Source: Nitrospirota bacterium
GTDB lineage: Bacteria; Nitrospirota; Nitrospiria; Nitrospirales; Nitrospiraceae
Length of the DNA stretch: 64,000 bases
Assembly: GCA_963701855.1 (NCBI GenBank)
Contig: CAVPBK010000003.1
Location: forward strand, 32,001-96,000
Direction of reading: 5' to 3'
Part shown: positions 1 through 58,100 of the stretch, in pieces
How the letters are laid out: every line of letters starts with the position of its first letter
Position numbering within the stretch: the stretch's first letter is position 1
The notes under the pieces: generated by a model
Told to the model about the DNA's origin: nothing
Seen by the model: the letters and a program-made list of their open reading frames with translations, nothing else
Database searches by the model: none
Program-made: the position numbers and the translations under genes

Positions 1-194
1 TCGTGCTTGGTGGAGCAGAGTTGACAGACCTCTCCAGTCATACGATCGCCTACCCCGGTGGAAATGGTGCGTTGATCGCGGTCATGCACGGATTGAATGT
101 GCCGGGGCAGGATGGGTATATCTATGTGGCAAATGGCAACTATGGCGAATCTAACCACCGCATCTTCAGAGTCATCCTCAATCCTAGTCCCTAA
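1..194 (+). CDS. 3' end of a second (inverted) copy of the PQQ-type sugar dehydrogenase lipoprotein gene, partial
   Basis: Translation matches the C-terminus of 4461..7193 except ELTD/ELTA and NVPG/NVLG. Confidence 0.85.
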   Translation, partial: VLGGAELTDLSSHTIAYPGGNGALIAVMHGLNVPGQDGYIYVANGNYGESNHRIFRVILNPSP

Positions 195-278
195 CGTCGT
201 TCCCCGTCTTTTTCGGTTTTTTCTTCAGAGTACCCCTCCGATCGTAAGCTCCCCCGTCAAGCCCGCGGAGTTTGTCCG

Positions 279-2015
279 CTACTGAATCGCCACCGGTATG
301 CGGTCATCATGATGAATACCTTGAACTGGCATCGGAAGTACTGATTGCCCTTCTACTTCCGCGTAATACAATTTCCCTTTGCACCATTGCCTAATTGGTT
401 CCAGGATTGGTATAGAATTTTGGCTGACTACAATTGCATTGATGGCCTTTATTTCCCAGCCACTTGAAGTACGTATTAATGATGCATTGACGAAATTGGT
501 TAATGCATTACGCAATGCATTAAAAGGTAACGTAACTAACTCCCTTTGACTTTGCTTTTCCGAGATATTCTTAACAGCTTCAATAAATTCCGGAATCAGT
601 GATAGCTTATTGCCATCGTTAACAAAACAGTTCATTGTCCCATATCTATTTCTTTGATGACCAAAGTAACAATGGGCCACTAACAAGCCATTCTGCTGGC
701 ATAGTAAATCAATATTCGCAGGCCTCAGTTGAAACGCTAAATGATTGAGCAGGACTGTATCAAAAACCTATATGCTCTGATCGCTCATGAGACTAGATTG
801 TCCGCTTAAATCATAAAGAACCATTGGATTTTCATGATAATACTTTAGGCGGCGATTATGCTCAGCAACAAGTTTCCATGCACCCATTCTCCACGGCTCT
901 TTTATATGATGTAAATGGTTAGGGCTTAACAAGTTCTTATATACAGAACTGCCATAGTAAGCCATCAGCGGGGCGCTCACGCGCTCTGTGTCCCACAAGA
1001 ACGACAAGAAATTTGAGAAGGCGCTGAATACTTTTCTATGCTCCCAAACATCTAAATGCCGTACCGGATTTTCCCAAACATCGGTATAGGACCAGTAGTT
1101 TTCAATTCCGGCTTTACTTAATATGTCCAACAAGCCGTCCCCTTCTTTAAAAACAGCATCTCTTGAAAATAGGTACGCTCCACACCCGTGATCAATCCAT
1201 GTTTTTGGAGAATATATGCTCATCATTTGAATTCTACGCAAACACTCCGAGAGTGAGGGAAGATTTTTCCGTGGACTTAGACCATGGTAGGCTATTTCAG
1301 AGCCGCTTTCATACATCTTGTCAATGTAGTTTTTATATTCAGGGACATCTAAACCAGGCTCCATTTTACCTGACCCATAATCACTGCTAGGGAATACCCC
1401 CTTTGTAATACGAAGACTGTTTTCAGAAAAAAGCTCGTGTTGTAGGCGAAGTTTTGGAACGGTATCAAAATCTGGGTGGTCAGTTAAACAAATAACGGAA
1501 CGCGCACCGTTCGGATATGGTTCAAGCCAAGCAGCTTCCTGAAGTGATCTGAGCCTGTTTGCCCTAATGTGGATTTGTTTCTTAATAATAGGAGGTTTTC
1601 TAATCTTAGAGTCGCCCCAGAGAATAAGCCCTGAACCCAATCTATCTTGAATTACAAACGTAGCAGTGACCTGGTTTCCTTGTTTGCACAGCCTCAAATG
1701 TGGATATTTAGGCAAATCAATTTGGCACAGCATATCCCCTTCCTGTAACCAAAGAATACAACCTACAGGAAAAGGAGGTGATGCCTTAGAAGATAAAGGA
1801 AGTATTTGCCGATCATGGCTAAGGAAGTATGCTTCTTCAGCACAGAACAAGCAGGTGACCTGAATACGATTCGTGTCTTCATTAGGCGTTGGGATACTAA
1901 GATGAAATTGTGTGGACCAGACACTCTCTTGAACTATTGAAATTAGAACTTCTTTTTTGGTTACTTTGAAGTCCGATGTGCTCTCGGAGTAGGCTTTTAC
2001 CGTAACGATTGCCAT
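279..2015 (-). pseudogene. Inverted copy of the 578-aa AT-rich gene, interrupted by a TGG>TAG nonsense change at 768-770
   Basis: ORFs 768..2015 and 279..686 are in the same frame; ATA-TAG-GTT here versus ATA-TGG-GTT in the intact copy. Confidence 0.85.
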
Positions 2016-2092
2016 GCCAAAATTTCTCCTTGCACATTACACATATTCATAAGTGGAACCTTGCGATGGTCTGTAGCGGTGGCCTCGTAAGT

Positions 2093-2133
2093 CCCCGTCA
2101 AGGAGACATTTTGAAAGTGTCTCCTTGACGGGG
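2093..2133. repeat. Local hairpin CCCCGTCAAGGAGACA-n9-TGTCTCCTTGACGGGG (mirror copy at 2520-2560)
   Basis: Perfect 16-bp stem read from the sequence. Confidence 0.9.
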
Positions 2134-2639
2134 GGAGCTTGCAAAGGGAGGATGTCAGGGTAACAATGTTCCTCAACACACAGTCAAGCAATACCCCGTT
2201 GGGGGGGCCGCCACTCCAGCCTCACCTATTCTGTCACCCCTTCCCTGCTTCCCAGGCCAATAGGGCAAAGAACACATTGCGTGCTCTATTAAAACAAGAT
2301 ATTCTCACCAAATTCTCGATACGTACGTGTATGTATCGAGAATTTGGTGAGAATATCTTGTTTTAAGAGAGCACGCAATGTGTTCTTTGCCCTATTGGCC
2401 TGGGAAGCAGGGAAGGGGTGACAGAATAGGTGAGGCTGGAGTGGCGGCCCCCCAACGGGGCATTGCTTGACTGTGTGTTGAGGAAAAGTGTTACCCTGAC
2501 ATCCTCCCTTTGCAAGCTCCCCCGTCAAGGAGACACTTTCAAAATGTCTCCTTGACGGGGGAACTTACCAGGCCACCCCTACAGACCATCGCAGGGTTCC
2601 ACTTATGAATAAGTGTAATGTGCAAGGAGAAATTTTGGC

Positions 2640-4376
2640 ATGGCAATCGTTACAGTAAAAGCCTACTCCGAGAACACATCAGACTTCAAAATAACCAGAA
2701 ATGAAATCCTGATTTCCATAGTTCAAGAGAATGTTTGGTCCACACAATTTGATCTTCGTATCCCAACGCCTAATGAAGACACGAATCGTATTCAGGTCAC
2801 CTGCTTGTTTTGTGCTGAAGAAGCATACTTCCTTAGCCATGATCGCCAAATACTTCCTTTATCTTCTAAGGCATCACCTCCCTTTCCTGTAGGTTGTATT
2901 CTTTGGTTACAAGAAGGGGATATGCTGTGCCAAATTGATTTGCCTAAATATCCATATTTGAGGCTGTGCAAACAAGGAAACCAGGTCACTGCTACGTTTG
3001 TAATTCAAGATAGATTGGGTTCAGGGCTTATTCTCTGGGGCGACTCTAAGATTAGAAAACCTCCTATTATTAAGAAACAAATCCACATTAGGGCAAACAG
3101 ACTCAGATCACTTCAGGAAGCTGCTTGGCTTGAACCATATCCGAACGGTGCGCGTTCTGTTATTTGTTTAACTGACCACCCAGATTTTGATACCGTTCCA
3201 AAACTTCGCCTACAACACGAGCTTTTTTCTGAAAACAGTTTTCGTATTACAAAGGGGGTATTCCCTAGCAGTGATTATGGGTCAGGTAAAATGGAGCCTG
3301 GTTTAGATGTCCCTGAATATAAAAACTACATTGACAAGATGTATGAAAGCGGCTCTGAAATAGCCTACCATGGTCTAAGTCCACGGAAAAATCTTCCCTC
3401 ACTCTCGGAGTGTTTGCGTAGAATTCAAATGATGAGCATGTATTCTCCAAAAACATGGATTGATCACGGGTGTGGAGCGTACCTATTTTCAAGAGATGCT
3501 GTTTTTAAAGAAGGGGACGGCTTGTTGGACATATTAAGTAAAGCCGGAATTGAAAACTACTGGTCCTATACCGATGTTTGGGAAAATCCGGTACGGCATT
3601 TAGATGTTTGGGAGCATAGAAAAGTATTCAGCGCCTTCTCAAATTTCTTGTCGTTCTTGTGGGACACAGAGCGCGTGAGCGCCCCGCTGATGGCTTACTA
3701 TGGCAGTTCTGTATATAAGAACTTGTTAAGCCCTAACCATTTACATCATATAAAAGAGCCGTGGAGAATGGGTGCATGGAAACTTGTTGCTGAGCATAAT
3801 CGCCGCCTAAAGTATTATCATGAAAATCCAATGGTTCTTTATGATTTAAGCGGACAATCTAGTCTCATGAGCGATCAGAGCATATGGGTTTTTGATACAG
3901 TGCTGCTCAATCATTTAGCGTTTCAACTGAGGCCTGCGAATATTGATTTACTATGCCAGCAGAATGGCTTGTTAGTGGCCCATTGTTACTTTGGTCATCA
4001 AAGAAATAGATATGGGACAATGAACTGTTTTGTTAACGATGGCAATCAGCTATCACTGATTCCGGAATTTATTGAAGCTGTTAAGAATATCTCGGAAAAG
4101 CAAAGTCAAAGGGAGTTAGTTACGTTACCTTTTAATGCATTGCGTAATGCATTAACCAATTTCGTCAATGCATCATTAATACGTACTTCAAGTGGCTGGG
4201 AAATAAAGGCCATCAATGCAATTGTAGTCAGCCAAAATTCTATACCAATCCTGGAACCAATTAGGCAATGGTGCAAAGGGAAATTGTATTACGCGGAAGT
4301 AGAAGGGCAATCAGTACTTCCGATGCCAGTTCAAGGTATTCATCATGATGACCGCATACCGGTGGCGATTCAGTAG
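2640..4376 (+). CDS. Hypothetical protein, AT-rich; central region resembles a polysaccharide deacetylase/GH57-like barrel
   Basis: 578-aa ORF with AAGGAG RBS; motifs PYPNG...LTDHPD, EIAYHG, TWIDHG; visibly lower GC than the rest of the window. Confidence 0.75.
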   Translation: MAIVTVKAYSENTSDFKITRNEILISIVQENVWSTQFDLRIPTPNEDTNRIQVTCLFCAEEAYFLSHDRQILPLSSKASPPFPVGCILWLQEGDMLCQIDLPKYPYLRLCKQGNQVTATFVIQDRLGSGLILWGDSKIRKPPIIKKQIHIRANRLRSLQEAAWLEPYPNGARSVICLTDHPDFDTVPKLRLQHELFSENSFRITKGVFPSSDYGSGKMEPGLDVPEYKNYIDKMYESGSEIAYHGLSPRKNLPSLSECLRRIQMMSMYSPKTWIDHGCGAYLFSRDAVFKEGDGLLDILSKAGIENYWSYTDVWENPVRHLDVWEHRKVFSAFSNFLSFLWDTERVSAPLMAYYGSSVYKNLLSPNHLHHIKEPWRMGAWKLVAEHNRRLKYYHENPMVLYDLSGQSSLMSDQSIWVFDTVLLNHLAFQLRPANIDLLCQQNGLLVAHCYFGHQRNRYGTMNCFVNDGNQLSLIPEFIEAVKNISEKQSQRELVTLPFNALRNALTNFVNASLIRTSSGWEIKAINAIVVSQNSIPILEPIRQWCKGKLYYAEVEGQSVLPMPVQGIHHDDRIPVAIQ

Positions 4377-4460
4377 CGGACAAACTCCGCGGGCTTGACG
4401 GGGGAGCTTACGATCGGAGGGGTACTCTGAAGAAAAAACCGAAAAAGACGGGGAACGACG

Positions 4461-7193
4461 TTAGGGACTAGGATTGAGGATGACTCTGAAGATGCGGTGG
4501 TTAGATTCGCCATAGTTGCCATTTGCCACATAGATATACCCATCCTGCCCCAGCACATTCAATCCGTGCATGACCGCGATCAACGCACCATTTCCACCGG
4601 GGTAGGCGATCGTATGACTGGAGAGGGCTGTCAACTCTGCTCCACCAAGCACGATTCGATGAAGTTGGCCGAAGTTGTAATCGGCGAACAGTAAGTTGTT
4701 GTAATATTGCGCCGGATAGGCGGAATCTTCTCTGATTGTGACGATCCCGGTTGGCGCAATGGTGGGGGTGGTGGAGGTGCCGAAGGTGATGATAGGATCA
4801 ATCCACCGTGGATCATTGCAAATTCCTAGACAAAGAGGGTATCCATAATTCCCGCCGGCAATGATCCTATTAATCTGATCATCAGTGGTATCACCGTTCT
4901 CGGTCTGCCACAAGTCATTCGTATGGGGATGGAACGTGAACCCGAAGCTATTGCGATGGCCATAACTGTAGATCGCGGAGAAAGGATACAGAAGATTATT
5001 CGGAGGATTAATGAAGGGATTGTCGGACGGAATTCCTCCATTCGGATTGATCCGCAACATTTTTCCTCTAAGCGTACTCAAGCTCTGTGAATCCCTTACT
5101 TCGTTGTCCCCTACAAAAATATAAAGCATTCTGTCCTGGCCGAACTGGAGAATGCCTCCGTTGTGAGGGTTGCCGGCAGGAATGTTGCCAAGAATCACTG
5201 TGGGCGGATCGCTTGTGGCCACAGTATATCCATTCGAATCAGTTGTGGCAGTTAACCGAACCACTCGGTTCTTCGGACCGGATGCGGTGGTGTAGTACAC
5301 ATACACATAGTGGTTATCGCTGAAACCGGGATCGACTGCGATGCCGAGCAACCCCTTTTCAACCCCGGTCACAAAATCATCCTTAGTGGAGGTGAAAGTG
5401 TAAAACGGTACAGATTGCAACTTCCACGGAGGCGTGGCGGTCGGCGTGACCACCTGGATATTACCGGTAATTAGTTCAGTCACAAAGATCCGTCCGTCCG
5501 GAGCCGTGGCCATCGCGACCGGGAAATTCAAGCCGCTCGCAACTTCTAGGAGGGAAAAATTTCCGCTCGTCTCAGTCGCGATGGTAAAATTAAGAGTTTT
5601 CTGCGTTGTTGGCAACTCTATATCCGATTGATCCACCAGCACGAATTTGACCTGATGAGAACCGGATGCTAAGGCATTGAGTTGAATTGAACTGCCGGAC
5701 TTCCAATGCACGGCGTGGGTATGACCGTACTGCTGGGTATTGGGGTCCGGATAACGAACCCCGCTCGTATCGCCAATTTCGGTGATCACTGGTCCATCGT
5801 AGAATTTGTAGATGGCGCGGTCATCGTCGACGTAGAAATGCATCCGTGGCTGAGTGGCCGAGTGCGGTACTGGAGAATTCTGAATATTGAACGAGACCGG
5901 CACAGGCCCGGGCGGCAAGGGAGCCCCTTGGGCAGGACTATTGATGGTCAATGTTGGAGGAGCAGGTTGAGCCTGAATGCTGATGTTCAGGATGGGCGGG
6001 TTGGCCTCCGCGTTCTGCAGGTCAATGTGACTAGAAGTGGCAAGAACAAGTCGAATCGAATGGCAACCGCTTGGGAGGTCGGTAATCTCGAACGAACTGT
6101 TGCTCAGCCAGGTGATGTTGGTAACAGGCTGTCCGCTGTTATCAAGTACCTTTTTGGTGTCTCCGTTGAAGAAGTGGTTCGTGGTGGTTCCGCCGTCCAG
6201 ATAGATATGGAGATGAGGGGCCCCCTGACCTCCGATCGTAGAATCCTGGGCTGTAAACGACACGTCGACAGGGTCCAATGGCAATGAAGCTCCCTGTGAT
6301 GGGCTCGTGATGGTCAACGGCGGAAAGGGAAACGAGGAGGCGAGGATCGTGATCGGCACCGAGTCGGGCGTGGCCTCCTTGTTAACAAATTCGTTATCTG
6401 AGGCAGTGGCTAACCTCACAGTGACTTGATGTGTGCCAGGAGACAATCCGTTCAGTCGAAACGAAGTGGGACTTTGCCATTGAACATCGGGGGTGGGTTG
6501 TCTGTTGTCGTCTACCACCTTGTTGGATTGTCCGTTGTTGCATTGTCCGTTGAAGAAATGGCGAGTTGCTCCCCCATCCACCGTGATGTGGAGGTGCTGC
6601 TGCCCCTGTCCTCCGACGACGAAGTGCTGAACAGCGAACTCTACGATAACCGAAAACGATCCGAGATCCGGATCGGTGGGAGTCGTGACCGTGAGGGTGG
6701 CCGGCGGCGGCTCGCTTCCTAAAAGCGAAACTAAAAGATCTTCAACGCCCAAGATCACATTAAGAAGCGGGTTCTGGGGCGTCGCTCTCCCGCTACTCAT
6801 CGTGACGGCTCCCAAATCAAGAGATCCCGCCGTCTGCATAGTGAACACGTTTGTCGGTGGATTCCCACCATAGAGAGGGAACGTCTGGCCTGCGCTAAAG
6901 AAGACAATCTCGACCGGAAGCCCGACCGGAATATTTGAGAGAGCAAATGGGAACGGAGGAGGGCCGGGTAGAGGCGCGGTATCAAATTGAGAAATGAGGG
7001 CCTTCGTGTCGGCCCGTAACACCTTGATGACGGTCCCGGAGACCGTCCCGGTGACGGTTGTGGAACCAGTAGCTGGCGCAAGGGGAGTGGGGGTACTTCC
7101 TCCACTAGACCCGCCGCCGCTGCATGAACTCAGAGCAAGCAGGAGTGTGGCGCAGGTCAAGAGCTTACTGAACAAGTTGGTCAATACCTTCAT
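4461..7193 (-). CDS. Lipoprotein with three Ig-like His-containing repeats and a C-terminal PQQ-dependent glucose/sorbosone dehydrogenase (GSDH) beta-propeller
   Basis: Lipobox LALSSC; GSDH motifs EKGLLGIAVDP, HNGG, GKMLRINPNG, YSYGHRNSFG, GGNYGYP. Confidence 0.9.
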   Translation of the reverse strand: MKVLTNLFSKLLTCATLLLALSSCSGGGSSGGSTPTPLAPATGSTTVTGTVSGTVIKVLRADTKALISQFDTAPLPGPPPFPFALSNIPVGLPVEIVFFSAGQTFPLYGGNPPTNVFTMQTAGSLDLGAVTMSSGRATPQNPLLNVILGVEDLLVSLLGSEPPPATLTVTTPTDPDLGSFSVIVEFAVQHFVVGGQGQQHLHITVDGGATRHFFNGQCNNGQSNKVVDDNRQPTPDVQWQSPTSFRLNGLSPGTHQVTVRLATASDNEFVNKEATPDSVPITILASSFPFPPLTITSPSQGASLPLDPVDVSFTAQDSTIGGQGAPHLHIYLDGGTTTNHFFNGDTKKVLDNSGQPVTNITWLSNSSFEITDLPSGCHSIRLVLATSSHIDLQNAEANPPILNISIQAQPAPPTLTINSPAQGAPLPPGPVPVSFNIQNSPVPHSATQPRMHFYVDDDRAIYKFYDGPVITEIGDTSGVRYPDPNTQQYGHTHAVHWKSGSSIQLNALASGSHQVKFVLVDQSDIELPTTQKTLNFTIATETSGNFSLLEVASGLNFPVAMATAPDGRIFVTELITGNIQVVTPTATPPWKLQSVPFYTFTSTKDDFVTGVEKGLLGIAVDPGFSDNHYVYVYYTTASGPKNRVVRLTATTDSNGYTVATSDPPTVILGNIPAGNPHNGGILQFGQDRMLYIFVGDNEVRDSQSLSTLRGKMLRINPNGGIPSDNPFINPPNNLLYPFSAIYSYGHRNSFGFTFHPHTNDLWQTENGDTTDDQINRIIAGGNYGYPLCLGICNDPRWIDPIITFGTSTTPTIAPTGIVTIREDSAYPAQYYNNLLFADYNFGQLHRIVLGGAELTALSSHTIAYPGGNGALIAVMHGLNVLGQDGYIYVANGNYGESNHRIFRVILNPSP

Positions 7194-7420
7194 AGGCTAT
7201 GAGTGAGGTTCTTTCTGGTTCGCGGCGAGCCGACACTCTGAGGCCTCCGCCCCTTTCCTCATGCGATTTTGACGGCGATGATGCCCTATTGTGCTCTAGC
7301 AAAACAACCCCGCATAAGCGGGACGGATACCTCATACAGGGGGAGTGGTATCTCATAAGTGCATGGGATATCTATCATATTATTTATTCTTGGTGCATCA
7401 GAGGGGGCTGTTGGAGGGAA

Positions 7421-7613
7421 CTAGGAGCCTGTCCGACAGTGACCGTTCTACTGTGGCAAATGATCTGTGACCATCTGCGTCGTTCTCGCCAGAAAAAATC
7501 CTCAACGCATCGTATTCCAGCGAATACACTTCCTGTTTTTCCTGGCCTTGCACCGCTCATATGGCCGCACCTCCTTTTCCTCGTCACGATGGCAATGTAG
7601 GACAGGCTCCTAG
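7421..7613. mobile_element. MITE-like element with terminal inverted repeats and CTAG at both ends
   Basis: CTAGGAGCCTGTCCGACAGTG ... CAATGTAGGACAGGCTCCTAG; no transposase inside. Confidence 0.75.
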
Positions 7614-8176
7614 GGCAGTTTCAAGTGCCGCATGCAACTGATGGTCTCCGCCGATAGCTGTGTCTGCCCTGCGTCGTATTCCGGGCAGCCTCGCGGCCAC
7701 AATGCTGAGGGCTCGTCCCGATACCGCGGCTATCGTTCAGAACGCATCGCCGTGGGCCAGCTCCAGGCTCAGGGTCTTGCGTGCTTCGACGTTCAAGTGC
7801 CTGTCGTATTTTTTGGCATGGCAACACCAGAGCTTACTAAGCCCTGCAGTATTGCGCGTGGAGTTAGAGCTTAAGCCTCCTAAGCCTCGTACACTCCCTC
7901 TAAAGAGGGGCTGGTCGATGGAACCGATGAAGGGTACTCTAGTGACATGTGATCCTGGAAAGGCCCGGGATGTGCTCTCCGAACCGAACCTTCTCGTATT
8001 ATTATTAAGGAGCGTCAACCATATTCTCGAATCCTTAGTCAACACTTTTGCTGCTCCTCCGGTGGCGCCAGGGAGGAATGTGCGAAAACCTTTCGTGAAT
8101 GTGTCTGGTTGTATGAGAATTCCTGGTTCGTCCGATCGTACATAGCTCTCATTAAGAGTATTGGACTGGCATACGC

Positions 8177-8572
8177 ATGAGTGACAGAGTTGCACAAGCA
8201 GTCGAACGTTGGACCGAGGAGGACAGACCCATGTCGGACCCACTGCAGGTAGCTCCACCCCCGATTGCCTCCGAGCCTGTCGTCGACATCACGATGCTGG
8301 ATCGGACCATCCTATGGCCCAGCCCTGATGTGCAGGGCACAAGCATGGAGGGCGAGACGGTGCTGTTGGATCTCAGTACCGGGCGGTACTACACCCTGAA
8401 CCGGTTGGGGAGCGTCATATGGGACCACTGTACCGGCCACAACACCGTCAGTGACATTCATGCGGTCCTGTGCGACCGCTTTGAGGTCTCTCCTGATCGG
8501 GCCCTGGACGATCTCATTGCCCTGATCAACCAATTGGTCAAGGAGGGGCTACTTCAACAGGAAAGGAGGTGA
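8177..8572 (+). CDS. PqqD-family RiPP recognition element (lasso B1-like); start may be 8231
   Basis: ETVLLDLSTGRYYTLNRLGSVIW...LCDRFEV...DLIALINQLVKEGLL is the typical PqqD/RRE pattern. Confidence 0.92.
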   Translation: MSDRVAQAVERWTEEDRPMSDPLQVAPPPIASEPVVDITMLDRTILWPSPDVQGTSMEGETVLLDLSTGRYYTLNRLGSVIWDHCTGHNTVSDIHAVLCDRFEVSPDRALDDLIALINQLVKEGLLQQERR

Positions 8573-8578
8573 GAAAGA

Positions 8579-8722
8579 GTGAATGAAAAGAAAGAGGTGT
8601 ATGTCCAGCCAGTGCTCGTAACGCATGAGTTGCTGCGGGACATCACTGCGAAGGCTTCTGGCGGTCATCATGGGAACTTCTCGTTTGGCCGTTTGTTTGG
8701 TTTTTTCCATGGCCATCGCTAG
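8579..8722 (+). CDS. RiPP precursor peptide with lasso-type leader, 47 aa: MNEKKEVYVQPVLVTHELLRDITA-KASGGHHGNFSFGRLFGFFHGHR
   Basis: GTG start 8 nt after AGGAGGT; YxxPxL leader motif and LRDIT motif; directly follows the RRE gene; too short for the supplied ORF track. Confidence 0.88.
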   Translation: MNEKKEVYVQPVLVTHELLRDITAKASGGHHGNFSFGRLFGFFHGHR

Positions 8723-8735
8723 ATAAGTCAGCATG

Positions 8736-8771
8736 GGCTGGTCGATTCATAAGAATCGGCCAGCCGTTTTT
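8736..8771 (+). terminator. Hairpin plus T-tract after the precursor gene (leaky terminator or stabilising stem)
   Basis: GGCTGGTCGATTC-ATAA-GAATCGGCCAGCC followed by GTTTTT. Confidence 0.75.
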
Positions 8772-8819
8772 CTCACGAGACGTGACGGCGTAGGTGACAA
8801 TCATCAGTGGGGGAACAGT

Positions 8820-9857
8820 ATGACGATGACCGTGGTCGAAAAGCCTATGGCCGAGTCTCTATTTTCCCTCTACGGCACGGCGGTGAGATATGCCACGGCG
8901 TCGCCCTTGTTGGCCGCACCGGTGAATGAGTTTCTGAGGCATTTTCGGCGGGACTCCCTTGAGGAGTCAGCCTCTTTCACCTTGTGCTTCCAGGCTGTGC
9001 AGGAACGAGCGGACATTCCGCTGACGATATCTTCATCGGCGCGTCAATTATCTTCCGGAACGGGTGCAGCGGTCGGGGATCGGCGGGAGACCGGGTTGCC
9101 CTACGAGGTGATTCAAGATGGTGGGCGGTTGATTGCGGACTTTTTCGATGCCGGAGTCCTGGTGATGGATGGCGAGCAGGGCAAGGCTGACGGCTATCTG
9201 ATCAAGCCGGAGACCATGCACGCGAGCTTGATCGAATATTTCTTTCACCTCGCCTTGATCGAACTCTTACGACGCCGTGGGCTCTATACGATTCATGCGA
9301 CTGCGCTGGAGAAACATGGCCGTGGAGTCTTGATTCCAGGGAATAGCGGCCGCGGCAAGACGACGTCCTTTATCTCGCTACTCCGCTCGGGCTATCGATA
9401 TCTCTCGGATGATCTTCCGTTGATTCGAGATGCCGGGAGGCATGTGGAGGTGCTCCCCTTTCCCACCAAGATTAACGTCACCGAAGCGACGATCGCCTTT
9501 TTCCCGGAACTCCTGGATGCGCCTGATCACGTGCTTCATCCCGGTTCGCCCAAGCGGTCTTTTCATGCCGAGGATCTGTATCCGACCTCGGTGGGCGACC
9601 GCTGTCAGCCGGCCATCATGCTGTTCCCCCATGTCGTCGATGCCCCTCACAGTCACCTTGAGCTCCTCCCCAAGAGCCGGGCCCTGGAAGTCCTCCTCCC
9701 ACAGGCATTGCTGGTCTATGATCCAGAGGTGGCTAGACGAGAATTTCAAGTCTTAGCGAGCCTGGTGCAGCAGGTGGACTGTTACCGCTTGCATTTTGGC
9801 CACGATATCCTCGACTTGCCGAAGTTGATCACGCCGCTGCTAGAGCAACGAAGATGA
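8820..9857 (+). CDS. HPr-kinase-like peptide kinase (lasso-cluster type)
   Basis: HATAL...GVLIPGNSGRGKTT...GYRYLSDD (His, Walker A, SDD); ATG at 8820 preferred because 8733 overlaps the hairpin. Confidence 0.85.
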   Translation: MTMTVVEKPMAESLFSLYGTAVRYATASPLLAAPVNEFLRHFRRDSLEESASFTLCFQAVQERADIPLTISSSARQLSSGTGAAVGDRRETGLPYEVIQDGGRLIADFFDAGVLVMDGEQGKADGYLIKPETMHASLIEYFFHLALIELLRRRGLYTIHATALEKHGRGVLIPGNSGRGKTTSFISLLRSGYRYLSDDLPLIRDAGRHVEVLPFPTKINVTEATIAFFPELLDAPDHVLHPGSPKRSFHAEDLYPTSVGDRCQPAIMLFPHVVDAPHSHLELLPKSRALEVLLPQALLVYDPEVARREFQVLASLVQQVDCYRLHFGHDILDLPKLITPLLEQRR

Positions 9858-11077
9858 TAGCGACCAGGCAGTTCTCATTGCGACCGGAATCGGAGCTCTT
9901 GGTCTGGTGTGCCCGTACGGTCGTGACCGATGAGCTCAAGGTCCGTATCCAGCAGAGAGTGCAAGAGCCGCTTGACTGGGAATATGTCCTCAACCTGGCT
10001 CAATATCATGGTGTGGGCCCCCTGTTGTATCGGAATCTGTCCACACTTTGTTCCGATCTCGTGCCTGCCGAATCGTTGACTCAGTTACGCCAGAGGACAC
10101 AAGCCGGTGCCTTGCTCAACCGGTTGCTCGTCCAGGAACTCGTCGTCTTATGCGACGCGTTTGTCGCGCAGGGAGTGCCGGTCATGCCCATTAAAGGGGC
10201 GACCCTGGCGTCCTCAGTCTATGGCGATCTGACGCTTCGCGACTTTAGCGACATGGACCTGCTCATTCCCAAAGGCTCCATTGCAGAAGCGCACGCCATC
10301 TTGTTGGCGCGGGGCTATGAGAGGAAAGACCCTTCTTCTGATCCTGGTGAGAGGGACCATGAGGATGGGCCTTACCATGTGTTTATCAAGAAGCGCACGC
10401 TCTTTCGTGTCGATCTCCAGTGGGTGATGGCAGGTGAGCACTTTGCGTTTCAGTTGGATCGTCCCGAGTTCTGGCAGCGCCGAACGGCTGTTCCGCTTGC
10501 GAACAAGACGGTACAAGGACTGACCCCGGAAGATCTATTGATCGTCCTGTGTGTCCATGGGTCGAAGCATGCATGGGACTCGCTCAAATGGGTATGCGAT
10601 GTCGCCGAGCTGCTTCGTGCACACAACCAACTGGACTGGGATCGGATCTCCTCGAGCGCATCGAGGTGGCGCTGCCGACGCCTGCTGTCTATGGGGTTGT
10701 CGCTCGCACATCTGGTGTTGGATGCCCCACTACCCAAGACGGTTCGCGCGCGGCTCTCCGCCGACTCAGATGTGCAGATGCTGTCCCACCGTATGCCATT
10801 CACTCTCCTGGCAGATCGTCGTGCCGGCGTGAATGAGGCACAGGCAGTTGCGCTCTATTTCACGTTGAAAGATTCGTGGTGGGAGCGTTGGCGGTTTGGC
10901 CTGATGCTGTGTCGTGACCAGAGTCCTATGGTCACAACCCCTCCAGCCTGGTTTCGCTGGCGCATCTCCCTTCCGCGTCTTGCTCGGCTCGTTCTCCCCC
11001 TTCACCGGACCATGAGGAGTCTGTTTCCCTCCACGATTCGGGGCGCTATCAATCGTTGGGTCGAGCACGGTGGTTAG
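9854..11077 (+). CDS. Nucleotidyltransferase family protein (NTP_transf_5-like)
   Basis: PIKGATLASSVYGDLTLRDFSDMDLLI motif; CVHGSKHAW...LKWVCD; ATGA overlap with the kinase. Confidence 0.88.
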   Translation: MIATRQFSLRPESELLVWCARTVVTDELKVRIQQRVQEPLDWEYVLNLAQYHGVGPLLYRNLSTLCSDLVPAESLTQLRQRTQAGALLNRLLVQELVVLCDAFVAQGVPVMPIKGATLASSVYGDLTLRDFSDMDLLIPKGSIAEAHAILLARGYERKDPSSDPGERDHEDGPYHVFIKKRTLFRVDLQWVMAGEHFAFQLDRPEFWQRRTAVPLANKTVQGLTPEDLLIVLCVHGSKHAWDSLKWVCDVAELLRAHNQLDWDRISSSASRWRCRRLLSMGLSLAHLVLDAPLPKTVRARLSADSDVQMLSHRMPFTLLADRRAGVNEAQAVALYFTLKDSWWERWRFGLMLCRDQSPMVTTPPAWFRWRISLPRLARLVLPLHRTMRSLFPSTIRGAINRWVEHGG

Positions 11078-11353
11078 TCATCTTCTGGTTTGAACCTTCT
11101 GGGAAGCCCATCTGTCGAGTCCCACACAGAAAATGGTTCGGATCTGCTGCGTCACTCGCTATGGTCTGCATTGTCTTTAATTGCTCTGCCGAAGAAATTG
11201 GAAATACATCACGGCCGACAGCCATGCCTCGTGGGTCGCGACGGGAGGTTGGGCGCCTCCCATGGCGCACCAGGATTATCAGAGCGCGTGGTCTTGGATT
11301 TGGAAACGGCGGATGCTGGAATTCTCATTGAGGCTTGCTACACTGAACGCACT

Positions 11354-11824
11354 ATGATCCGATTCGTAAAAAAGTATTGGACCCTGCTGCGCGCAGGCCT
11401 GGTAGTGTCGTGGATTCGTCTCTTGTTGCGGGTCAAGAGTTTGCCACTGGTGCTGGACCGATTAAATCCTCGCTCGACAATGGAAAGACCCGACGAGGCA
11501 GTGATGGGGGATCTGGTCTGCTATGTAGATCGCTGGCTTCAACTGTTTCCCTATAACAAAAAGGGGAATTGCTTCCCACGGTCGCTGGCTCTCTATTGGT
11601 TCGCCAGGCGATTGGGGTATCCGGTTCTCTTTCATTGTGGTGTAAGAAAAGAAGCCTCGAATCTCGATGGCCATGCGTGGCTCACATTGGATGGCCAGCC
11701 TTTTCACGAGACGGGCCAGCATTGGCAACGGTTCACCGTTACCTTTTCGCATCCTCAGGATCCGACAGTTGGGACGCAGGCCTCTGCCCTCCGGCGTCAG
11801 AACAACAGGACGACGATGTCCTGA
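11354..11824 (+). CDS. Lasso peptide B2-type leader protease (transglutaminase-like)
   Basis: NCFPRSLAL...GVRK...GHAWL Cys/His motifs; ATG 11354 chosen over TTG 11090. Confidence 0.9.
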   Translation: MIRFVKKYWTLLRAGLVVSWIRLLLRVKSLPLVLDRLNPRSTMERPDEAVMGDLVCYVDRWLQLFPYNKKGNCFPRSLALYWFARRLGYPVLFHCGVRKEASNLDGHAWLTLDGQPFHETGQHWQRFTVTFSHPQDPTVGTQASALRRQNNRTTMS

Positions 11825-11839
11825 CGAGGCATTCATCAC

Positions 11840-13666
11840 GTGTTCCCGTCACCGATGAACATCATTCTGAATCGCATCCGCCCCTTCCTCCTGACGCTTC
11901 GCCACGCTCTCTTGTTTGTGTGGCAGAGCAGCCCGAGTCTGGCAATCGGCAGTATCGTGGTGCGCGTGATCCAAGGCCTTCTTCCGCTGGTGGCGCTGTA
12001 TCTGACGAAGTTGTTGATCGATGCCGTTGCCGAAGGGCTCAAGGCTCCATCAGCCGAAGGCTCCTTGAGCGGGATGGCCATGATTCTTGCTGGGTTGGCA
12101 GGTGTCGCGGTGGCCAGTGCCATGCTCACCGGCGTGGCCTCTCTGATTTCAAGGATTCATGCTCAAGTCGTCACGGATCATATGCACGCACTCCTTCAGG
12201 CAAAGTCCGTCGAGGTCGATCTTGAGTACTACGAGAATGCGCGCTATCAAGATACGCTCCATCGCGCACAAGAAGAAGCGCCTTATCGTCCGACGGCGAT
12301 TCTCAACGCCTTGCTCCAATTTGGCCAGGATGCCATTTCACTGTTTGCGATGGCAGCCATACTCTGGTGGTTGCATTGGGGGGTGATCCCGATCTTGATG
12401 CTGACGGCCATCCCGTACTTTTTCGTCCGTCTGCAGCAATCCAATCGACTGTTTGCCTGGGAGCGCGAGCGGACGCCGCTTGAGCGGAAAGCCTGGTACG
12501 TCAATATGCTGCTGACCCAAGCGATTGCAGCGAAAGAAATCCGGCTGTTCGACCTCGGCCCTCGGTTGCGGCAATGGTTCCAAGACGCGCGATCAGTGCT
12601 GCGTCGAGAACGGATCGCGTTAGAGCGCCGATGGGCGCTCGCGGGTTTTGCCGCGCAGATCATCGGCGTGGCCGGTGTGTTCGGGGTCTACAGTTTTGTG
12701 GCGTTCCGAACGTTTCAGGGGCTGCTCACCGTGGGCGACCTCGTCATGTTTTTCCAGGCGGTGCAGCGGGCCTCCGGATTCCTGGAGAGTTTGGGACAGA
12801 GTGTGTCCAGCCTCTATGAGAGCAATTTGTTCCTAACCACGTTGGATGAGTTTCTGGGTATTCAGTCTCGTTTGCCGAAGTCGGCACATCCGAAGTTGTT
12901 TCCCCAACCGATCGCGCAGGGGATTACATTCGATCATGTGTCCTTCCAATACCCGCATGAAGAACGTGTGGCGATCCAGGAGTTCACCTTTACGATCAGA
13001 CCCGGCGAACATGTCGCGTTTGTCGGAGCCAATGGGGCGGGGAAGACGACGCTGGTGAAGCTCCTATGCCGTCTGTACGATCCGTCGGGGGGGCGCATCA
13101 CGGTCGATGGTGAAGATCTTCGGAACTATCCCCTTGCCGATGTCCGTGGCGCCGTCAGCGGAATTTTTCAGGACTTTGTGAAGTTCCAGTTTTCGGCCAA
13201 GGACAACATCTCGTTGGGCCTGAGATCCCCCGACATCGACCTTTCCGCCGTCACGCAGGCGGCCAAACAGGCTGGGATCCATGAGGCCATCGAGCGTTTG
13301 CCGAAGGGGTACGAGTCATTGCTCGGCAAGCTGTTCGACGGCGGGCATGAACTGAGCATCGGGGAATGGCAAAAAGTGGCGCTCGCCAGGGCCATCCTTC
13401 GCGATTCTCAGATCCTGATTCTCGACGAGCCTACCAGCGCGATGGATGCCAAGGCCGAAGCGGAATTGTTCGAGCGGTTTCACGAACTCACTCAAGGGCG
13501 TATGGCGATTTTGATCAGTCATCGACTGGCTACTGTCAAAATGGCCGACTGTATTTTTGTCCTCGATCACGGCCAAATTGTGGAACGGGGAACCCATGAT
13601 GAGTTGATGCGACGGCAGGGGCTCTACGCCACGCTTTTCCTCACCCAAGCCCAGCATTATCAGTAG
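11840..13666 (+). CDS. ABC exporter, fused permease/ATPase
   Basis: TM helices, Walker A GANGAGKTT, signature LSIGEWQK, ILDEPT, ISHR. Confidence 0.95.
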   Translation: MFPSPMNIILNRIRPFLLTLRHALLFVWQSSPSLAIGSIVVRVIQGLLPLVALYLTKLLIDAVAEGLKAPSAEGSLSGMAMILAGLAGVAVASAMLTGVASLISRIHAQVVTDHMHALLQAKSVEVDLEYYENARYQDTLHRAQEEAPYRPTAILNALLQFGQDAISLFAMAAILWWLHWGVIPILMLTAIPYFFVRLQQSNRLFAWERERTPLERKAWYVNMLLTQAIAAKEIRLFDLGPRLRQWFQDARSVLRRERIALERRWALAGFAAQIIGVAGVFGVYSFVAFRTFQGLLTVGDLVMFFQAVQRASGFLESLGQSVSSLYESNLFLTTLDEFLGIQSRLPKSAHPKLFPQPIAQGITFDHVSFQYPHEERVAIQEFTFTIRPGEHVAFVGANGAGKTTLVKLLCRLYDPSGGRITVDGEDLRNYPLADVRGAVSGIFQDFVKFQFSAKDNISLGLRSPDIDLSAVTQAAKQAGIHEAIERLPKGYESLLGKLFDGGHELSIGEWQKVALARAILRDSQILILDEPTSAMDAKAEAELFERFHELTQGRMAILISHRLATVKMADCIFVLDHGQIVERGTHDELMRRQGLYATLFLTQAQHYQ

Positions 13667-13876
13667 TCGAGGTCTTGTGAATAGCTGGGCGCATTCACAA
13701 ACCATGTGTAACATTTATGGGAGAAAATGCTGCATGGGAAAAATCTACACACAGTTGAGTTTTCAAGAACCGACGATCATCCATAGGCAAATGGAGGTAT
13801 GCCTCGAATTCACTCAACTCCGTTGACGGAAACGCGACATTCTGCCATTCTAATCGAAACTTAACGGAGAGGCTTT

Positions 13877-48913: not shown

Positions 48914-51900
48914 GTTCCGATCGGCGTTGCCATGTCAGCCTGAATCTCGGCTACGGACAAGGCGCGGTTGTAAATCCGCACCTCGTCGATGATCCCTTGG
49001 AAATAATAGCCGGCGGGGCGGCGCCCGATATTCACGTTTTGGGGGGAATTCACCAGGGCAGCCGGCACGGTGCCACTTAAGACCCCGTTGTCTAAGACGC
49101 CGTTCACATAGATGTCCAGTGTTTGGGCCGTGGCGTTGTACACCCCCGCCACGTGATACCAGGTATTGAGGGCCCGGGTGGTGGTGCTGTAGCGCTGGAC
49201 GTTGGTGGACCCGTTGGGAGAGACCGCCACGGCAAACCTGTGGGGCCCCGTATCGGGGCTCGTCTTCAATTGCCAGCCGTCGGGGCCGGCCGACTTGGCG
49301 ATAATCTGTCCGTCATTGGGCGGATTGCCGGTGGCGAAGACCCAGGCGCTCCAGGTCATGCTGCCGGTGAGTTGGAGTGGGATCGGATTGCCGAGATCCA
49401 CATAACTGGTCATCCCGTCGAAGGCGAGGGCATTTCCGTATTTGCCCGCCGGGGTCCAGGTCGCGCCAGCCAGCGTGCCGGTGAGACCATTGCCGGAGGC
49501 ATCCGCGGTGGTCGTGCCGGTCCCCGCGTCGAAGGCATAGGCGGCCACCCGGCCGGTGGCGGCCGTGGTGGCGCTGGCAATATTGGAGTACCCGCTGAAG
49601 TTGCCTGCCGCATCGGTGGCGCGCACCTGATAGCGGTACGTGCTGGCAGGCAGCAGGCCGGTGTCACTGTAAGTTGTGCCGGTGGGGGTCGCGATCTGCA
49701 CAAAGGTGGTGCAGGTCGTGCCTTGACACCGTTCGACCGCATAGCCGGTGACGCCGATGTTGTCCGTGGCGGCGGTCCAACCCAGAGTGATTTGGCTGGT
49801 GCCAGCCGCGGTCGCGGTGACGCCGCTCGGGGCCGTGGGCGGAGTGGTATCCGACGCTTGAGTTGTGGCCCCGGCAATTGCGGAATAAGGCCCCAGATTG
49901 CCCACCGCATCGGTGGCGCGCACCTGATAGCGGTAGGTGGAGGAGGAGGTGAGGCCCGTATCGCCAAAGCTGGTGCCGGTCGGCTGTCCCACTTCGACGA
50001 AGTTGACACAGGCGACGCCTTGGCAGCGCTCCACGCGATAGCCCGTGACACCCACATTATCCGTAGCCGCGGTCCAGGTGAGATTGATCTGCGTCGCGCT
50101 CGCCACCGTCGCGGTGACGCCAGCCGGGGCGGTGGGCGGGGTCATATCTGAGCCCTGCGAGCCCACCGGCGTATTCATATCCGTCGCAACTTCGGCTGCG
50201 GACAAGGCGCGGTTGTAAATCCGCACCTCGTCGATGATCCCTTGGAAATAATAGCCGGCGGGGCGGCGCCCGATATTCACGTTTTGGGGGGAATTCACCA
50301 GGGCAGCCGGCACGGTGCCACTTAAGACCCCGTTGTCTAAGACGCCGTTCACATAGATGTCCAGTGTTTGGGCCGTAGCGTTGTACACCCCCGCCACGTG
50401 ATACCAGGTATTGAGGACCCGGGTGGTGGTGCTGTAGCGCTGGACGATGGTGGACCCGTTGGGAGAGACCGCCACGCCAAACGTGTGGGGCCCCGTATCG
50501 GGGTTGTTTTCAATTGCCAGCCGTCGGGGCCGGCCGACTTGGCGATAATCTGTCCGTCATTGGGCGGATTGCCGGTGGCGAAGACCCAGGCGCTCCAGGT
50601 CATGCTGCCGGTGAGTTGGAGTGGGATCGGATTGCCGAGATCCACATAACTGGTCATCCCGTCGAAGGCGAGGGCATTTCCGTATTTGCCCGCCGGGGTC
50701 CAGGTCGCGCCAGCCAGCGTGCCGGTGAGACCATTGCCGGAGGCATCCGCGGTGGTCGTGCCGGTCCCCGCGTCGAAGGCATAGGCGGCCACCCGGCCGG
50801 TGGCGGCCGTGGTGGCGCTGGCAATATTGGAGTACCCGCTGAAGTTGCCCGCCGCATCGGTGGCGCGCACCTGATAGCGGTACGTGCTGGCAGGCAGCAG
50901 GCCGGTGTCACTGTAAGTTGTGCCGGTGGGGGTCGCGATCTGCACAAAGGTGGTGCAGGTCGTGCCTTGACACCGTTCGACCGCATAGCCGGTGACGCCG
51001 ATGTTGTCCGTGGCGGCGGTCCAGCCCAGAGTGATTTGGCTGGTGCCAGCCGCGGTCGCGGTGACGCCGCTCGGGGCCGTGGGCGGAGTGGTATCCGACG
51101 CTTGAGTTGTGGCCCCGGCAATTGCGGAATAAGGCCCCAGATTGCCCACCGCATCGGTGGCGCGCACCTGATAGCGGTAGGTGGAGGAGGAGGTGAGGCC
51201 CGTATCGCCAAAGCTGGTGCCGGTCGGCTGTCCCACTTCGACGAAGTTGACACAGGCGACGCCTTGGCAGCGCTCCACGCGATAGCCCGTGACACCCACA
51301 TTATCCGTAGCCGCGGTCCAGGTGAGATTGATCTGCGTCGCGCTCGCCACCGTCGCGGTGACGCCAGCCGGGGCGGTGGGCGGGGTCATATCTGAGCCCT
51401 GCGAGCCCACCGGCGTATTCATATCCGTCGCAACTTCGGCTGCGGACAAGGCGCGGTTGTAAATCCGCACCTCGTCGATCAAGCCCTGAAAGAACTCGGT
51501 GGGATAGGTGTTCCCGCCGATACGCAGTGAGGTCGTGGTCGTCTGGATCAGTCCCGTGGCCGGCATGCTGCTCACCAGCCCGCCGTTGATGTAGAGCTGA
51601 ATCAGCGTGCCGTTATAAGTGGCGGCGACGTGGGTCCAGGTATTGGGCACCAGGGCCGCGGTAGCATAGACGTTCGTACAGCAGGTGGTGCCAAAGGTGG
51701 CGCCGCTGGCCGGCCGATTCTGCTGACTCGAGCTGGCGGTTAGGAAGTAGGCGTCCGCTTCTTTTTGGAGAATGGCCTTCCAGCCCGAGAGGGTCGCCGT
51801 GGGGTTTACCCAGGCTTCCAAGGTCATGGCCGTGCTGAGATTCAACGAGGCACTGGCGGGGACGAGAATAAGGTCATTGACCCCATCGAAACTGACTGCG

Positions 51901-55168: not shown

Positions 55169-58100
55169 GGGCCCACCGGGGTATTCATATCCGTCACGAC
55201 CTCGGCGGCCGACAAGACGCGCGTGTAGATCCGCACGTCGTCGAGCGTGCCTGAGAAGGTGTTGTTTTTAGCCGCGACTCGAGCGTGCCGAACTTGACGA
55301 GATGATCGGCGCCGTCTGCTGTGAGACTGAGCGTCGCCGTCGTCGTCAGCACGCCGTCGATGTAGATCTTGAGCGCGTTCGTCGTGGCGCGTGCGTGACC
55401 GCGTAGTGATGCCAGTTGAGATCCGTGATCGTGCTCGACAGGACGTCGGTGTTGTTCGCGCCGAAGGCCAGCACGTTGTTGGCCTTGAAGTAGAACTCTT
55501 TGTAGCCCGCCGTTGAGGTGGCATTGTTGAACTTGCTGAAGAGGTGCTGCTGATGCCCGTCCAGGACGTTGCGTTGCGCCCAGAGCTTGAGCGTAAAGTC
55601 TTGCGTGCCGAAGTTGAAGGTGCTCGGATTGGTGACCGCCAGCTCGTCGTCAACGCCGTCGAACGACAGCGCGGTGCCGTGGGAGGCCTGGCCCGCGACC
55701 CAGGCCGGGCCGTTAATCAGCGTGCCGGCGTGGCCGTTGCCGGACAGATCCGCGGTGGTGATGCTGGTCCCTTCAGTAAAGGCGTAGGCGTCCACCAGGC
55801 CGGTGGCGGCGGCGGTGGTGGCGCTGGCAATATTGGAGTACCCGCTGAAGTTACCCGCCGCATCGGTGGCGCGCACCTGATACTGGTACGTGGTTGAGGG
55901 CAGCAGACCAGTGTCGTTGTAGGTCGTGCCGCTCGGGGTCGCGATCTGCGCAAAGGTGGTGCAGGTCGTCCCCTGACACCGTTCGAGCCCATAGCCCGTC
56001 ACCCCGACGTTGTCGGTGGCGGCGGTCCAGTTCAGCGTGATTTGGCTGCTGCCGGAGGCGGTGGCCCCTAGCCCCGTTGGGGCCGTGGGCGGGGTCGTAT
56101 CGAGCGCTGGCGTGGTGGCACTGGCAATCGTGGAATAAGGTCCCAGATTGCTCGCCGCATCGATGGCTCGTACCTGATAGCGGTAGGTGGTCAAGGGGGT
56201 GAGGCCCGTGTCGCCGAAGCTGGTGCCGATCGGTTGCCCCACTTCGAGAAAGTTGACACAGCCGGCGTCGGCGCACCGTTCGACGCGATAGCCGGTGACG
56301 CCGACGTTATCGGTCGCGGTCGTCCAGGTGAGATTGATCTGCGTCGCATTCACCGCCGTCGCGGTCGGCGTTCCCGGCGCGGTGGGCGGCGTCGTGTCCG
56401 GGCCCGGCGGACTCACCGGGGTATTCATATCCGTCACGACCTCGGCGGCCGACAAGATGCGCGTGTAGATTCGCATGTCGTCGAGCGTGCCTGAGAAAGT
56501 GTTGTTTTGAGCCCCGGACTTGAGCGTGCCGAACTTGACGAGATGATCGGCGCCGTCTGCTGTGAGACTGAGCGTCGCCGTCGTCGTCAGCACGCCGTCG
56601 ATGTAGATCTTGAGCGCGTTCGTCGTGGCGCTGTGCGTGACCGCGTAGTGATGCCAGTTGAGATCCGTGATCGTGCTCGACAGGAACGTCGGTGTTGTTC
56701 GCGCCGAAGGCCAGCACGTTGTTGGCCTTGAAGTAGAACTCTTTGTAGCCCGCCGTTGAGGTGGCATTGTTGAACTTGCTGAAGAGGTGCTGCTGATGCC
56801 CGTCCAGGACGTTGCGTTGCGCCCAGAGCTCGAGCGTAAAGTCTTGCGTGCCGAAGTTGAAGGTGCTCGGATTGGTGACCGCCAGCTCGTCGTCAACGCC
56901 GTCGAACGACAGCGCGGTGCCGTGGGAGGCCTGGCCCGCGACCCAGGCCGGGCCGTTAATCAGCGTGCCGGCGTGGCCGTTGCCGGACAGATCCGCGGTG
57001 GTGATGCTGGTCCCTTCAGTAAAGGCGTAGGCGTCCACCAGGCCGGTGGCGGCGGCGGTGGTGGCGCTGGCAATATTGGAGTACCCGCTGAAGTTACCCG
57101 CCGCATCGGTGGCGCGCACCTGATACTGGTACGTGGTTGAGGGCAGCAGACCAGTGTCGTTGTAGGTCGTGCCGCTCGGGGTCGCGATCTGCGCAAAGGT
57201 GGTGCAGGTCGTCCCCTGACACCGTTCGAGCCCATAGCCCGTCACCCCGACGTTGTCGGTGGCGGCGGTCCAGTTCAGCGTGATTTGGCTGCTGCCGGAG
57301 GCGGTGGCCCCTAGCCCCGTTGGGGCCGTGGGCGGGGTCGTATCGAGCGCTGGCGTGGTGGCACTGGCAATCGTGGAATAAGGTCCCAGATTGCTCGCCG
57401 CATCGATGGCTCGTACCTGATAGCGGTAGGTGGTCAAGGGGGTGAGGCCCGTGTCGCCGAAGCTGGTGCCGATCGGTTGCCCCACTTCGAGAAAGTTGAC
57501 ACAGCCGGCGTCGGCGCACCGTTCGACGCGATAGCCGGTGACGCCGACGTTATCGGTCGCGGTCGTCCAGGTGAGATTGATCTGCGTCGCATTCACCGCC
57601 GTCGCGGTCGGCGTTCCCGGCGCGGTGGGCGGCGTCGTGTCCGGGCCCGGCGGACTCACCGGGGTATTCATATCCGTCACGACCTCGGCGGCCGACAAGA
57701 TGCGCGTGTAGATTCGCACGTCGTCGAGCGTGCCTGAGAAAGTGTTGTTTTGAGCCCCGGACTTGAGCGTGCCGAACTTGACGAGATGATCGGCGCCGTC
57801 TGCTGTGAGACTGAGTGTCGCCGTCGTCGTCAGCACGCCGTCGATGTAGATCTTGAGCGCGTTCGTCGTGGCGCTATGCGTGACCGCGTAGTGATGCCAG
57901 TTGAGATCCGTGATCGTGCTCGACAGGACGTCGGTGTTGTTCGCGCCGAAGGCCAGCACGTTGTTGGCCTTGAAGTAGAACTCTTTGTAGCCCGCCGTTG
58001 AGGTGGCATTGTTGAACTTGCTGAAGAGGTGCTGCTGATGCCCGTCCAGGACGTTGCGTTGCGCCCAGAGCTCGAGCGTAAAGTCTTGCGTGCCGAAGTT

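Follow-up and report, generated by a model that had tools for sequence, protein, structure and literature searches.

A 68-kb palindrome with unequal arms in a Nitrospirota genome assembly, probably a fold-back join between two strain haplotypes

Long spacerless palindromes are unstable in bacteria, and finding one in a deposited genome raises the question of whether it belongs to the chromosome or to the assembly. In this study, such a palindrome was analysed in a stretch of 64,000 nucleotides from a Nitrospirota bacterium (assembly GCA_963701855.1, here genome G000; contig CAVPBK010000003.1, here C3, positions 32001-96000), which is referred to as the window. The genome is 4.30 Mb long in 15 contigs, with 55-56% GC. 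The palindrome is best explained as a fold-back misassembly with an extra arm from a second strain, not as a structure of the chromosome, and we place the probability of this explanation at about 0.8.

Extent of the palindrome and divergence of its arms

The initial annotation of the window had described a nearly spacerless palindrome of at least 4.65 kb, with arms reaching the window edge and a centre at 2327/2328. This palindrome is present in the deposited sequence, and its length had been given as a lower bound only. A repeat search within the window paired arms 1-2096 and 2559-4654 at 98% complementarity and the inner arms 2195-2326 and 2329-2460 at 96%, with a gap of 2 nt, which agrees with the proposed centre (C3:34327/34328). 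When the whole contig was compared by megablast, the palindrome spanned C3:1-68395 (window end 36395 on the right), approximately 34.2 kb per arm, in three inverted colinear blocks: C3:1-8621 against 68395-59773 (99.84% identity), C3:8916-16814 against 59657-51773 (92.3%), and C3:17086-51588 against its own reverse complement (94.7%). The left arm (C3:1-34327, of which window 1-2327 is the inner end) is a redundant, inverted copy laden with frameshifts. Its outer end is the first base of C3, and the arm stops there because the contig ends. The right arm (C3:34328-68395, window 2328-36395) is an intact copy, colinear with the remaining contig and with relatives. No comparable inverted duplication was found elsewhere across the 15 contigs. 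Folding of the central 60 nt gave a hairpin with a perfect stem at -26.6 kcal/mol (z = -13), and none of 200 shuffled sequences matched it.

Both arms carry genes that belong to the core chromosome and not to a mobile element. Outward from the axis, Pfam assignments on the right arm gave a 578-aa gene (P0001) and a 910-aa glucose/sorbosone dehydrogenase gene of the pyrroloquinoline quinone (PQQ) type; then HPr-kinase-like, NTP_transf_5, transglutaminase-like and ABC-transporter genes, followed by UDP-glucose dehydrogenase; further out a secretin/T2SSF/T2SSE/PilN/PilO pilus cluster and sugar-nucleotide enzymes; and outermost a phosphoribosyltransferase gene in the pyrR position, pyrB, dihydroorotase (pyrC) and carA. 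Within the window, the duplication covers the 578-aa gene whole and the 3' end of the 910-aa gene, as had been noted. G000 has two copies of pyrB that are 100% identical. Among 84 genomes of the genus searched, 75 had any pyrB match and 72 of these had a single one; of the other three, two carried the gene as split fragments and one had two complete copies, each on its own contig.

The arms are unequal, as the initial annotation had also stated, and differ by 1459 substitutions (959 transitions and 500 transversions) and 52 insertion or deletion (indel) events. In a gapped alignment from about window position -130 to the centre, 44 differences were counted, five of them indel events. Identity per 500 nt is a mosaic that ranges from 100% down to approximately 80%: it is 100% across most of the outer 10 kb, 80-93% at C3:10500-22500, 99-100% at C3:23000-25000, 93-98% onward to C3:31500, 99.5% at C3:32000-33500, and 96% at the centre. 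Two stretches could not be aligned. In one of these, the left arm contains an extra copy (C3:8814-8942) of an approximately 125-nt repeat, and the right arm has no counterpart of this copy. The repeat belongs to a dispersed set resembling miniature inverted-repeat transposable elements, 82-90% identical, with other copies at C3:4070-4195 and 64199-64327 and many in contigs C5, C6 and C1.

The damage is confined to one arm. Among 29 genes compared, 13 had a frameshifting indel or a stop, every one of them in the left arm, and 11 of the 13 had in-frame stops; the 29 genes were chosen on the right arm, which makes this comparison asymmetric by design. The cover by open reading frames (ORFs) agrees with it: in the diverged zone the cover was 0.93 on the right and 0.87 on the left, and the median ORF was 293 and 194 aa, respectively. 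Intact ORFs tile the right arm as a whole over 0.83-0.93 of its length. In the T2SSE/PilB pair, in which both copies are intact, 139 synonymous and 31 non-synonymous codon differences were counted. Both copies have therefore evolved as working genes, and by this codon pattern they diverged under purifying selection, like orthologues of two lineages. Sequencing error as the only source of the divergence was ruled out by the ratio of substitutions to indels (28:1) together with the purifying selection.

Whether the arms are sister copies was examined in the pilus zone. With the left arm at C3:12001-20000 as the query, four other species of the genus scored 6527-6309 bits and the right arm scored 6236. 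A maximum-likelihood tree was built for one 4.65-kb pilus segment (20 rows and 4652 columns) from the two arms and 18 relatives with full-length matches, comprising the 15 best-scoring and three lower-scoring ones, with fragmentary matches excluded. The clade of left and right arm had been named as the test group before the tree was seen. The left arm joined G094 and G014 (support 100/99) and next G079 (98/98), with the right arm outside this group. Forcing the two arms together cost 63.5 log-likelihood units (approximately unbiased [AU] test, p = 0.0012). This tree rejects the arms as each other's closest relatives in the pilus segment, on sequence evidence that recombination inside the segment could distort.

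Public metagenome reads were also searched. Of 24 sequencing runs listed, 19 contained part of the stretch and none contained at least half of the sampled words; the best word shares were 0.29, 0.22, 0.20 and 0.18, all in soil metagenomes. Four soil metagenomes (X1 to X4) were mapped on window 2150-9000 at 90% likeness and yielded 94 contig pieces, mostly 150-860 nt long with a depth of 2-5. No joints and no piece bridging the axis were present among these short, low-depth pieces, and loose ends at 2162 and 2167 were uninformative. The metagenome base was that of the left arm at 8 of 40 variant positions listed, and an 861-nt contig from X1 had 9 differences from the right arm, in a region with 60 differences between the left arm and the right arm. 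The arm differences fit alleles that segregate in natural populations.

The axis and its natural neighbour

The axis lies on a 24-nt natural quasi-palindrome (window 2316-2339), in which 10 of 12 positions pair. A 24-nt motif beside the axis has three sites in the genome, namely one in each arm and one at the start of another contig (C4:26-49); at up to 3 mismatches it was found in none of 84 other genomes of the genus, and no match was found in metagenome contigs of the Joint Genome Institute (JGI). When the minus strand is read across the axis, 21 nt match the homologous site at the beginning of C4 exactly. The homology with the inner end of the arms extends over C4:1-72; the identity is 91.7% when the minus strand is read (from the right arm into the axis) and 84.7% when the plus strand is read. 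Since C4 shares the 21 nt that cross the axis, the central mismatches 2323/2332 and 2327/2328 are natural sequence of the quasi-palindrome and not divergence between the arms. In 200,000 positions of C4, 13 axes pair at 10 or more of 12 positions.

Past its first 72 nt, C4 continues with AT-rich DNA that is unique, and a BACON/fn3 repeat-protein gene follows, beyond which lie genes for a Wzz-type tyrosine kinase, a sugar transferase for polysaccharide synthesis and a DegT aminotransferase. The region of the BACON/fn3 surface-protein gene contains tandem repeats of approximately 306 nt, 85-91% identical (C4:1088-3235).

Gene order in relatives points to the same neighbour. An orthologue of the C4 sugar transferase is present in nine genomes of the genus at 77-89% amino-acid identity. 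In all four relatives with the genes on the same contig (G095, G093, G011 and G092), the C4-type gene, the secretin gene and pyrB stand in this order on one strand; the remaining five genomes have these genes on separate short contigs and are uninformative on order. Comparison by tblastx with G095, G093 and G011 showed matches running from C4:10283 down to about C4:330 and then, within 0.5-0.7 kb, from C3:45865 onward (UDP-glucose dehydrogenase and secretin). In addition, 27 nt of the intergenic DNA of G095 matched C3:34389-34415, in a position colinear with the right arm. In the relatives, this locus is internal to contigs of 0.11-2.9 Mb. The start of C4 is thus most likely the natural neighbour beyond the axis, to judge from these comparisons. 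By the homology of C4 and the gene order of relatives, the expected arrangement, which is also the ancestral one, would therefore be the reverse complement of C4, the axis and the right arm, with an island of approximately 11.5 kb inserted in this genome.

Origin of the palindrome

In the preferred explanation, the chromosome would run from the reverse complement of C4, an exopolysaccharide cluster with the BACON/fn3 gene as its last gene, through the 24-nt quasi-palindrome into the right arm and the rest of C3. The assembly would have turned back at the quasi-palindrome, probably because of a fold-back (snap-back) molecule or read, or a few of them; a fold-back read presumably made the link, and assemblers presumably carry such reads into contigs. 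C3 would thereby have gained, where C4 belongs, the adjacent 34 kb a second time in inverted form. A single folded molecule gives equal arms, so that a second haplotype is needed; the initial annotation was correct that a simple fold-back of one molecule does not explain arms that differ. The reads behind the consensus of the left arm would have come from a second Nitrospira strain that was less abundant in the sample. Where the two strains hardly differ over stretches longer than a read, both arms would be polished by reads of both strains and reach 100% identity; where the strains differ, only reads of the rarer strain would map to the left arm and leave its alleles together with uncorrected one-base indel errors, and the one-base indels of the left arm are accordingly taken as probable consensus errors. 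The genome is 97.14% complete with 0.39% contamination, a value by which no second strain would have been binned elsewhere, and the left arm would have been retained only through its physical attachment.

The locus thus combines an inverted duplication with one arm cut by a contig end, a true continuation beyond the axis that stands elsewhere in the assembly (C4), divergence of the kind seen between orthologues (dominated by substitutions, with purifying selection in PilB) and, in the one 4.65-kb pilus segment, copies that are not sisters. The equality expected of two strands of one molecule is not seen. Three readings had been offered in the initial annotation: a join of two strain haplotypes, a real inverted duplication, and a hairpin-end junction. 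The haplotype join is favoured by the mosaic, substitution-dominated differences, the one-sided breakage, the non-sister arms and the C4 neighbour with its conserved synteny, and the other two are disfavoured as set out below.

Fold-back reads have been documented in genomic libraries of both Nanopore and PacBio (PMC12870357; PMC13141652). These sources give up to 0.61% of all reads and approximately 15% of split reads for fold-back reads (PMC12870357), and 0.18-7.33% for inverted-repeat chimeras in ligation preparations (PMC13141652). The palindrome resembles such chimeric reads ("duplicated inversion") in its one exact axis, its inverted copy that runs to the contig end and the true neighbour left as a contig end. 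Unlike them, its arms differ by 0-20% in a mosaic and contain insertions, and 34 kb is long for one chimeric read. It also resembles strain chimeras and retained haplotigs in metagenome-assembled genomes (MAGs), since the locus is present twice and the divergence is concentrated in genes of surface structures (pilus and glycan) with housekeeping genes nearly identical; however, retained haplotigs normally form their own contig or a bubble, and here the copy is joined head-to-head to its own allele.

Several observations weigh against the fold-back explanation. The use of long reads from a metagenome is an inference from the contiguity of the assembly and from a resolved 10-kb tandem array. The indels are mainly of a single base, and many lie outside long homopolymers; these are not of the kind most typical of consensus errors in long reads and may be genuine mutations. 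In PilB, 179 substitutions but no indel were counted, whereas its neighbours have several indels, which neither uniform error nor uniform decay predicts. C4:1-72 differs by 8% from both arms and is only 91.7% identical to the right arm, whereas a clean overlap of one strain would be identical, so that either a third haplotype or poor polishing of the contig end would have to be assumed. The quasi-palindrome at C4 forms no stable hairpin (-0.2 kcal/mol), and 199 of 200 shuffled sequences folded equally well or better.

If the palindrome were instead a real 68-kb inverted duplication, formed in vivo by fold-back at the quasi-palindrome, one arm would since have decayed and, through recombination, been replaced in part by foreign alleles. 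Tandem inversion duplications and palindromic amplification at short quasi-palindromes have been described in Salmonella and yeast, and the junction here stands exactly on such a site, as in template-switch models; the axis would be a classical priming site for fold-back. The many frameshifts and stops of one arm are what a redundant copy might have, the indels are not chiefly homopolymer errors, and the sequence stands in a genome that is 97% complete and 0.39% contaminated. Copies formed in this way are, however, identical at origin and sisters, and the sister relation was rejected in the pilus segment (AU p = 0.0012). Random decay would split the 13 broken genes between the arms, not place them all in one. 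The strong purifying selection on PilB (139 versus 31 codon differences) also argues against this reading, and a third copy of the axis sequence would be required, as the C4 end still has it. A real duplication is thus judged quite improbable.

A hairpin telomere, or a junction of replicated telomeres, in a linear replicon that depends on a protelomerase for its resolution is barely conceivable. As in the hairpin telomeres of Borrelia (ResT), Agrobacterium (TelA) and phage N15 (TelN), a replicated telomere would show a spacerless palindrome, and the exactly symmetric junction and the very stable central stem fit this. The initial annotation had proposed looking for a protelomerase or for a transposase with matching ends, and neither was found with one protelomerase family model and a Pfam scan of proteins of the right arm and its flank. 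PF16684 (the ResT/TelK catalytic family, the single model searched) had no match in G000, which is 97.14% complete, and matched in 1 of 14 control genomes. Unlike such telomeres, the arms consist of core chromosomal genes and are not identical. The homology continues through the axis in C4 and G095, which argues that the replicon does not end there, and in relatives the locus lies inside contigs. The Pfam scan of 30 proteins encoded on the right arm or close beside it gave no transposase or integrase family, and nine of the 30 had no family at all; by this absence, a composite transposon, inverted insertion sequence copies and arms formed by a mobile element were ruled out.

There is also a small chance that the fold-back was biological and rare, that is, a replication or repair intermediate or a rearrangement in a subpopulation that the assembler promoted, with the left arm again from a second strain. 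The evidence for the preferred explanation serves this one equally, and the position of the axis on a quasi-palindrome is as compatible with template switching by a polymerase in vivo as with the same event in vitro. However, the sequence alone cannot separate such an event from a library artefact, and long-read libraries yield fold-back artefacts often enough for no biology to be required (PMC12870357).

Features near the axis, other repeats and implications

P0001 (window 2640-4376, plus strand) is intact on the right arm, encodes 578 aa and has approximately 42% GC, compared with 55% in the genome. Its left-arm copy (279-2015, minus strand) has 26 substitutions, one of which turns Trp416 into a TAG stop (codon at 768-770). 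The protein matched no Pfam or NCBIfam family. In relatives, no match at a meaningful level was found among 40 genomes, the single hit having 27% identity (E = 2.5e-5), and no relative was found in JGI metagenome contigs. A homologue of 67% identity is present in a Nitrospiraceae MAG among genes for glycosyltransferase, aminotransferase and acetyltransferase, and P0001 is probably an enzyme of a glycan cluster, as this neighbourhood suggests. One glycosyltransferase gene near this homologue is 76% identical to C4:15828-17100; the gene order differs, and the match is a functional hint only. The nearest ESM Atlas clusters of P0001 were unnamed (0.97 and 0.95), and polysaccharide deacetylase clusters at 0.82 are a lead only.

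Between the start codon of P0001 and the axis lies a GC-rich, self-complementary 42-nt hairpin (2093-2134, with its mirror at 2519-2560; 100% complementary), which could be a terminator or a regulatory stem for divergent genes. The PQQ-type glucose/sorbosone dehydrogenase gene is intact on the right arm (4461-7193, minus strand, 910 aa), and in its left-arm copy (C3:29467-32191) 8 indels shift the frame and 12 stops lie in frame.

Both right-arm genes belong to the accessory island of approximately 11.5 kb (2328-13860), which also contains two small ORFs and the HPr-kinase-like, nucleotidyltransferase, transglutaminase-like and ABC-transporter genes. The island is missing in G095, G093 and G011, where the BACON/fn3 gene abuts the UDP-glucose dehydrogenase gene, and it therefore appears to be strain- or species-specific. 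Within it, four adjacent genes (8733-13666; HPr-kinase-C-like, NTP_transf_5, Transglut_core3 and ABC transporter) form a set that we take to resemble lasso-peptide clusters with a tailoring kinase.

Other repeats were observed in the window and the genome. Two tandem duplications with a period of approximately 1.24 kb lie at window 48947-51479 (two copies, 99.1% identity) and 55174-59498 (approximately 3.5 copies, 98.8-99.2% identity); identity between the two sets is 81-82%, and they show a weak similarity to C5:1513-4183. An approximately 11-kb tandem array with a 354-nt period and copies 99.9-99.99% identical (C6:1189068-1200066) is probably a gene for a giant repeat protein or a collapsed or expanded array. 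The same 3 kb stands at the contig ends C9:1-2968 and C14:114736-117713 in opposite orientation (96.7% identity), and C8 and C10 begin with shorter pieces of it, which also occur within C2. This sequence is either a repeat or a second case of strains tangled at the ends of contigs.

For the use of this genome, the first 34.3 kb of C3 should not count as genome content, as this doubles approximately 29 genes, including pyrB, pyrC and part of carA, and the 13 left-arm "pseudogenes" should not be taken for real ones. The axis is probably a point at which C3 can be joined to C4. A fold-back join together with strain heterogeneity can yield a palindrome with diverged arms, and a rule by which identical arms mark an artefact would pass such a palindrome as real. 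As biology, the palindrome is most likely nothing, and its value lies in quality control; if it were genuine, a long-lived giant palindrome would be tolerated here, in striking contrast to the instability that long palindromes show in bacteria.

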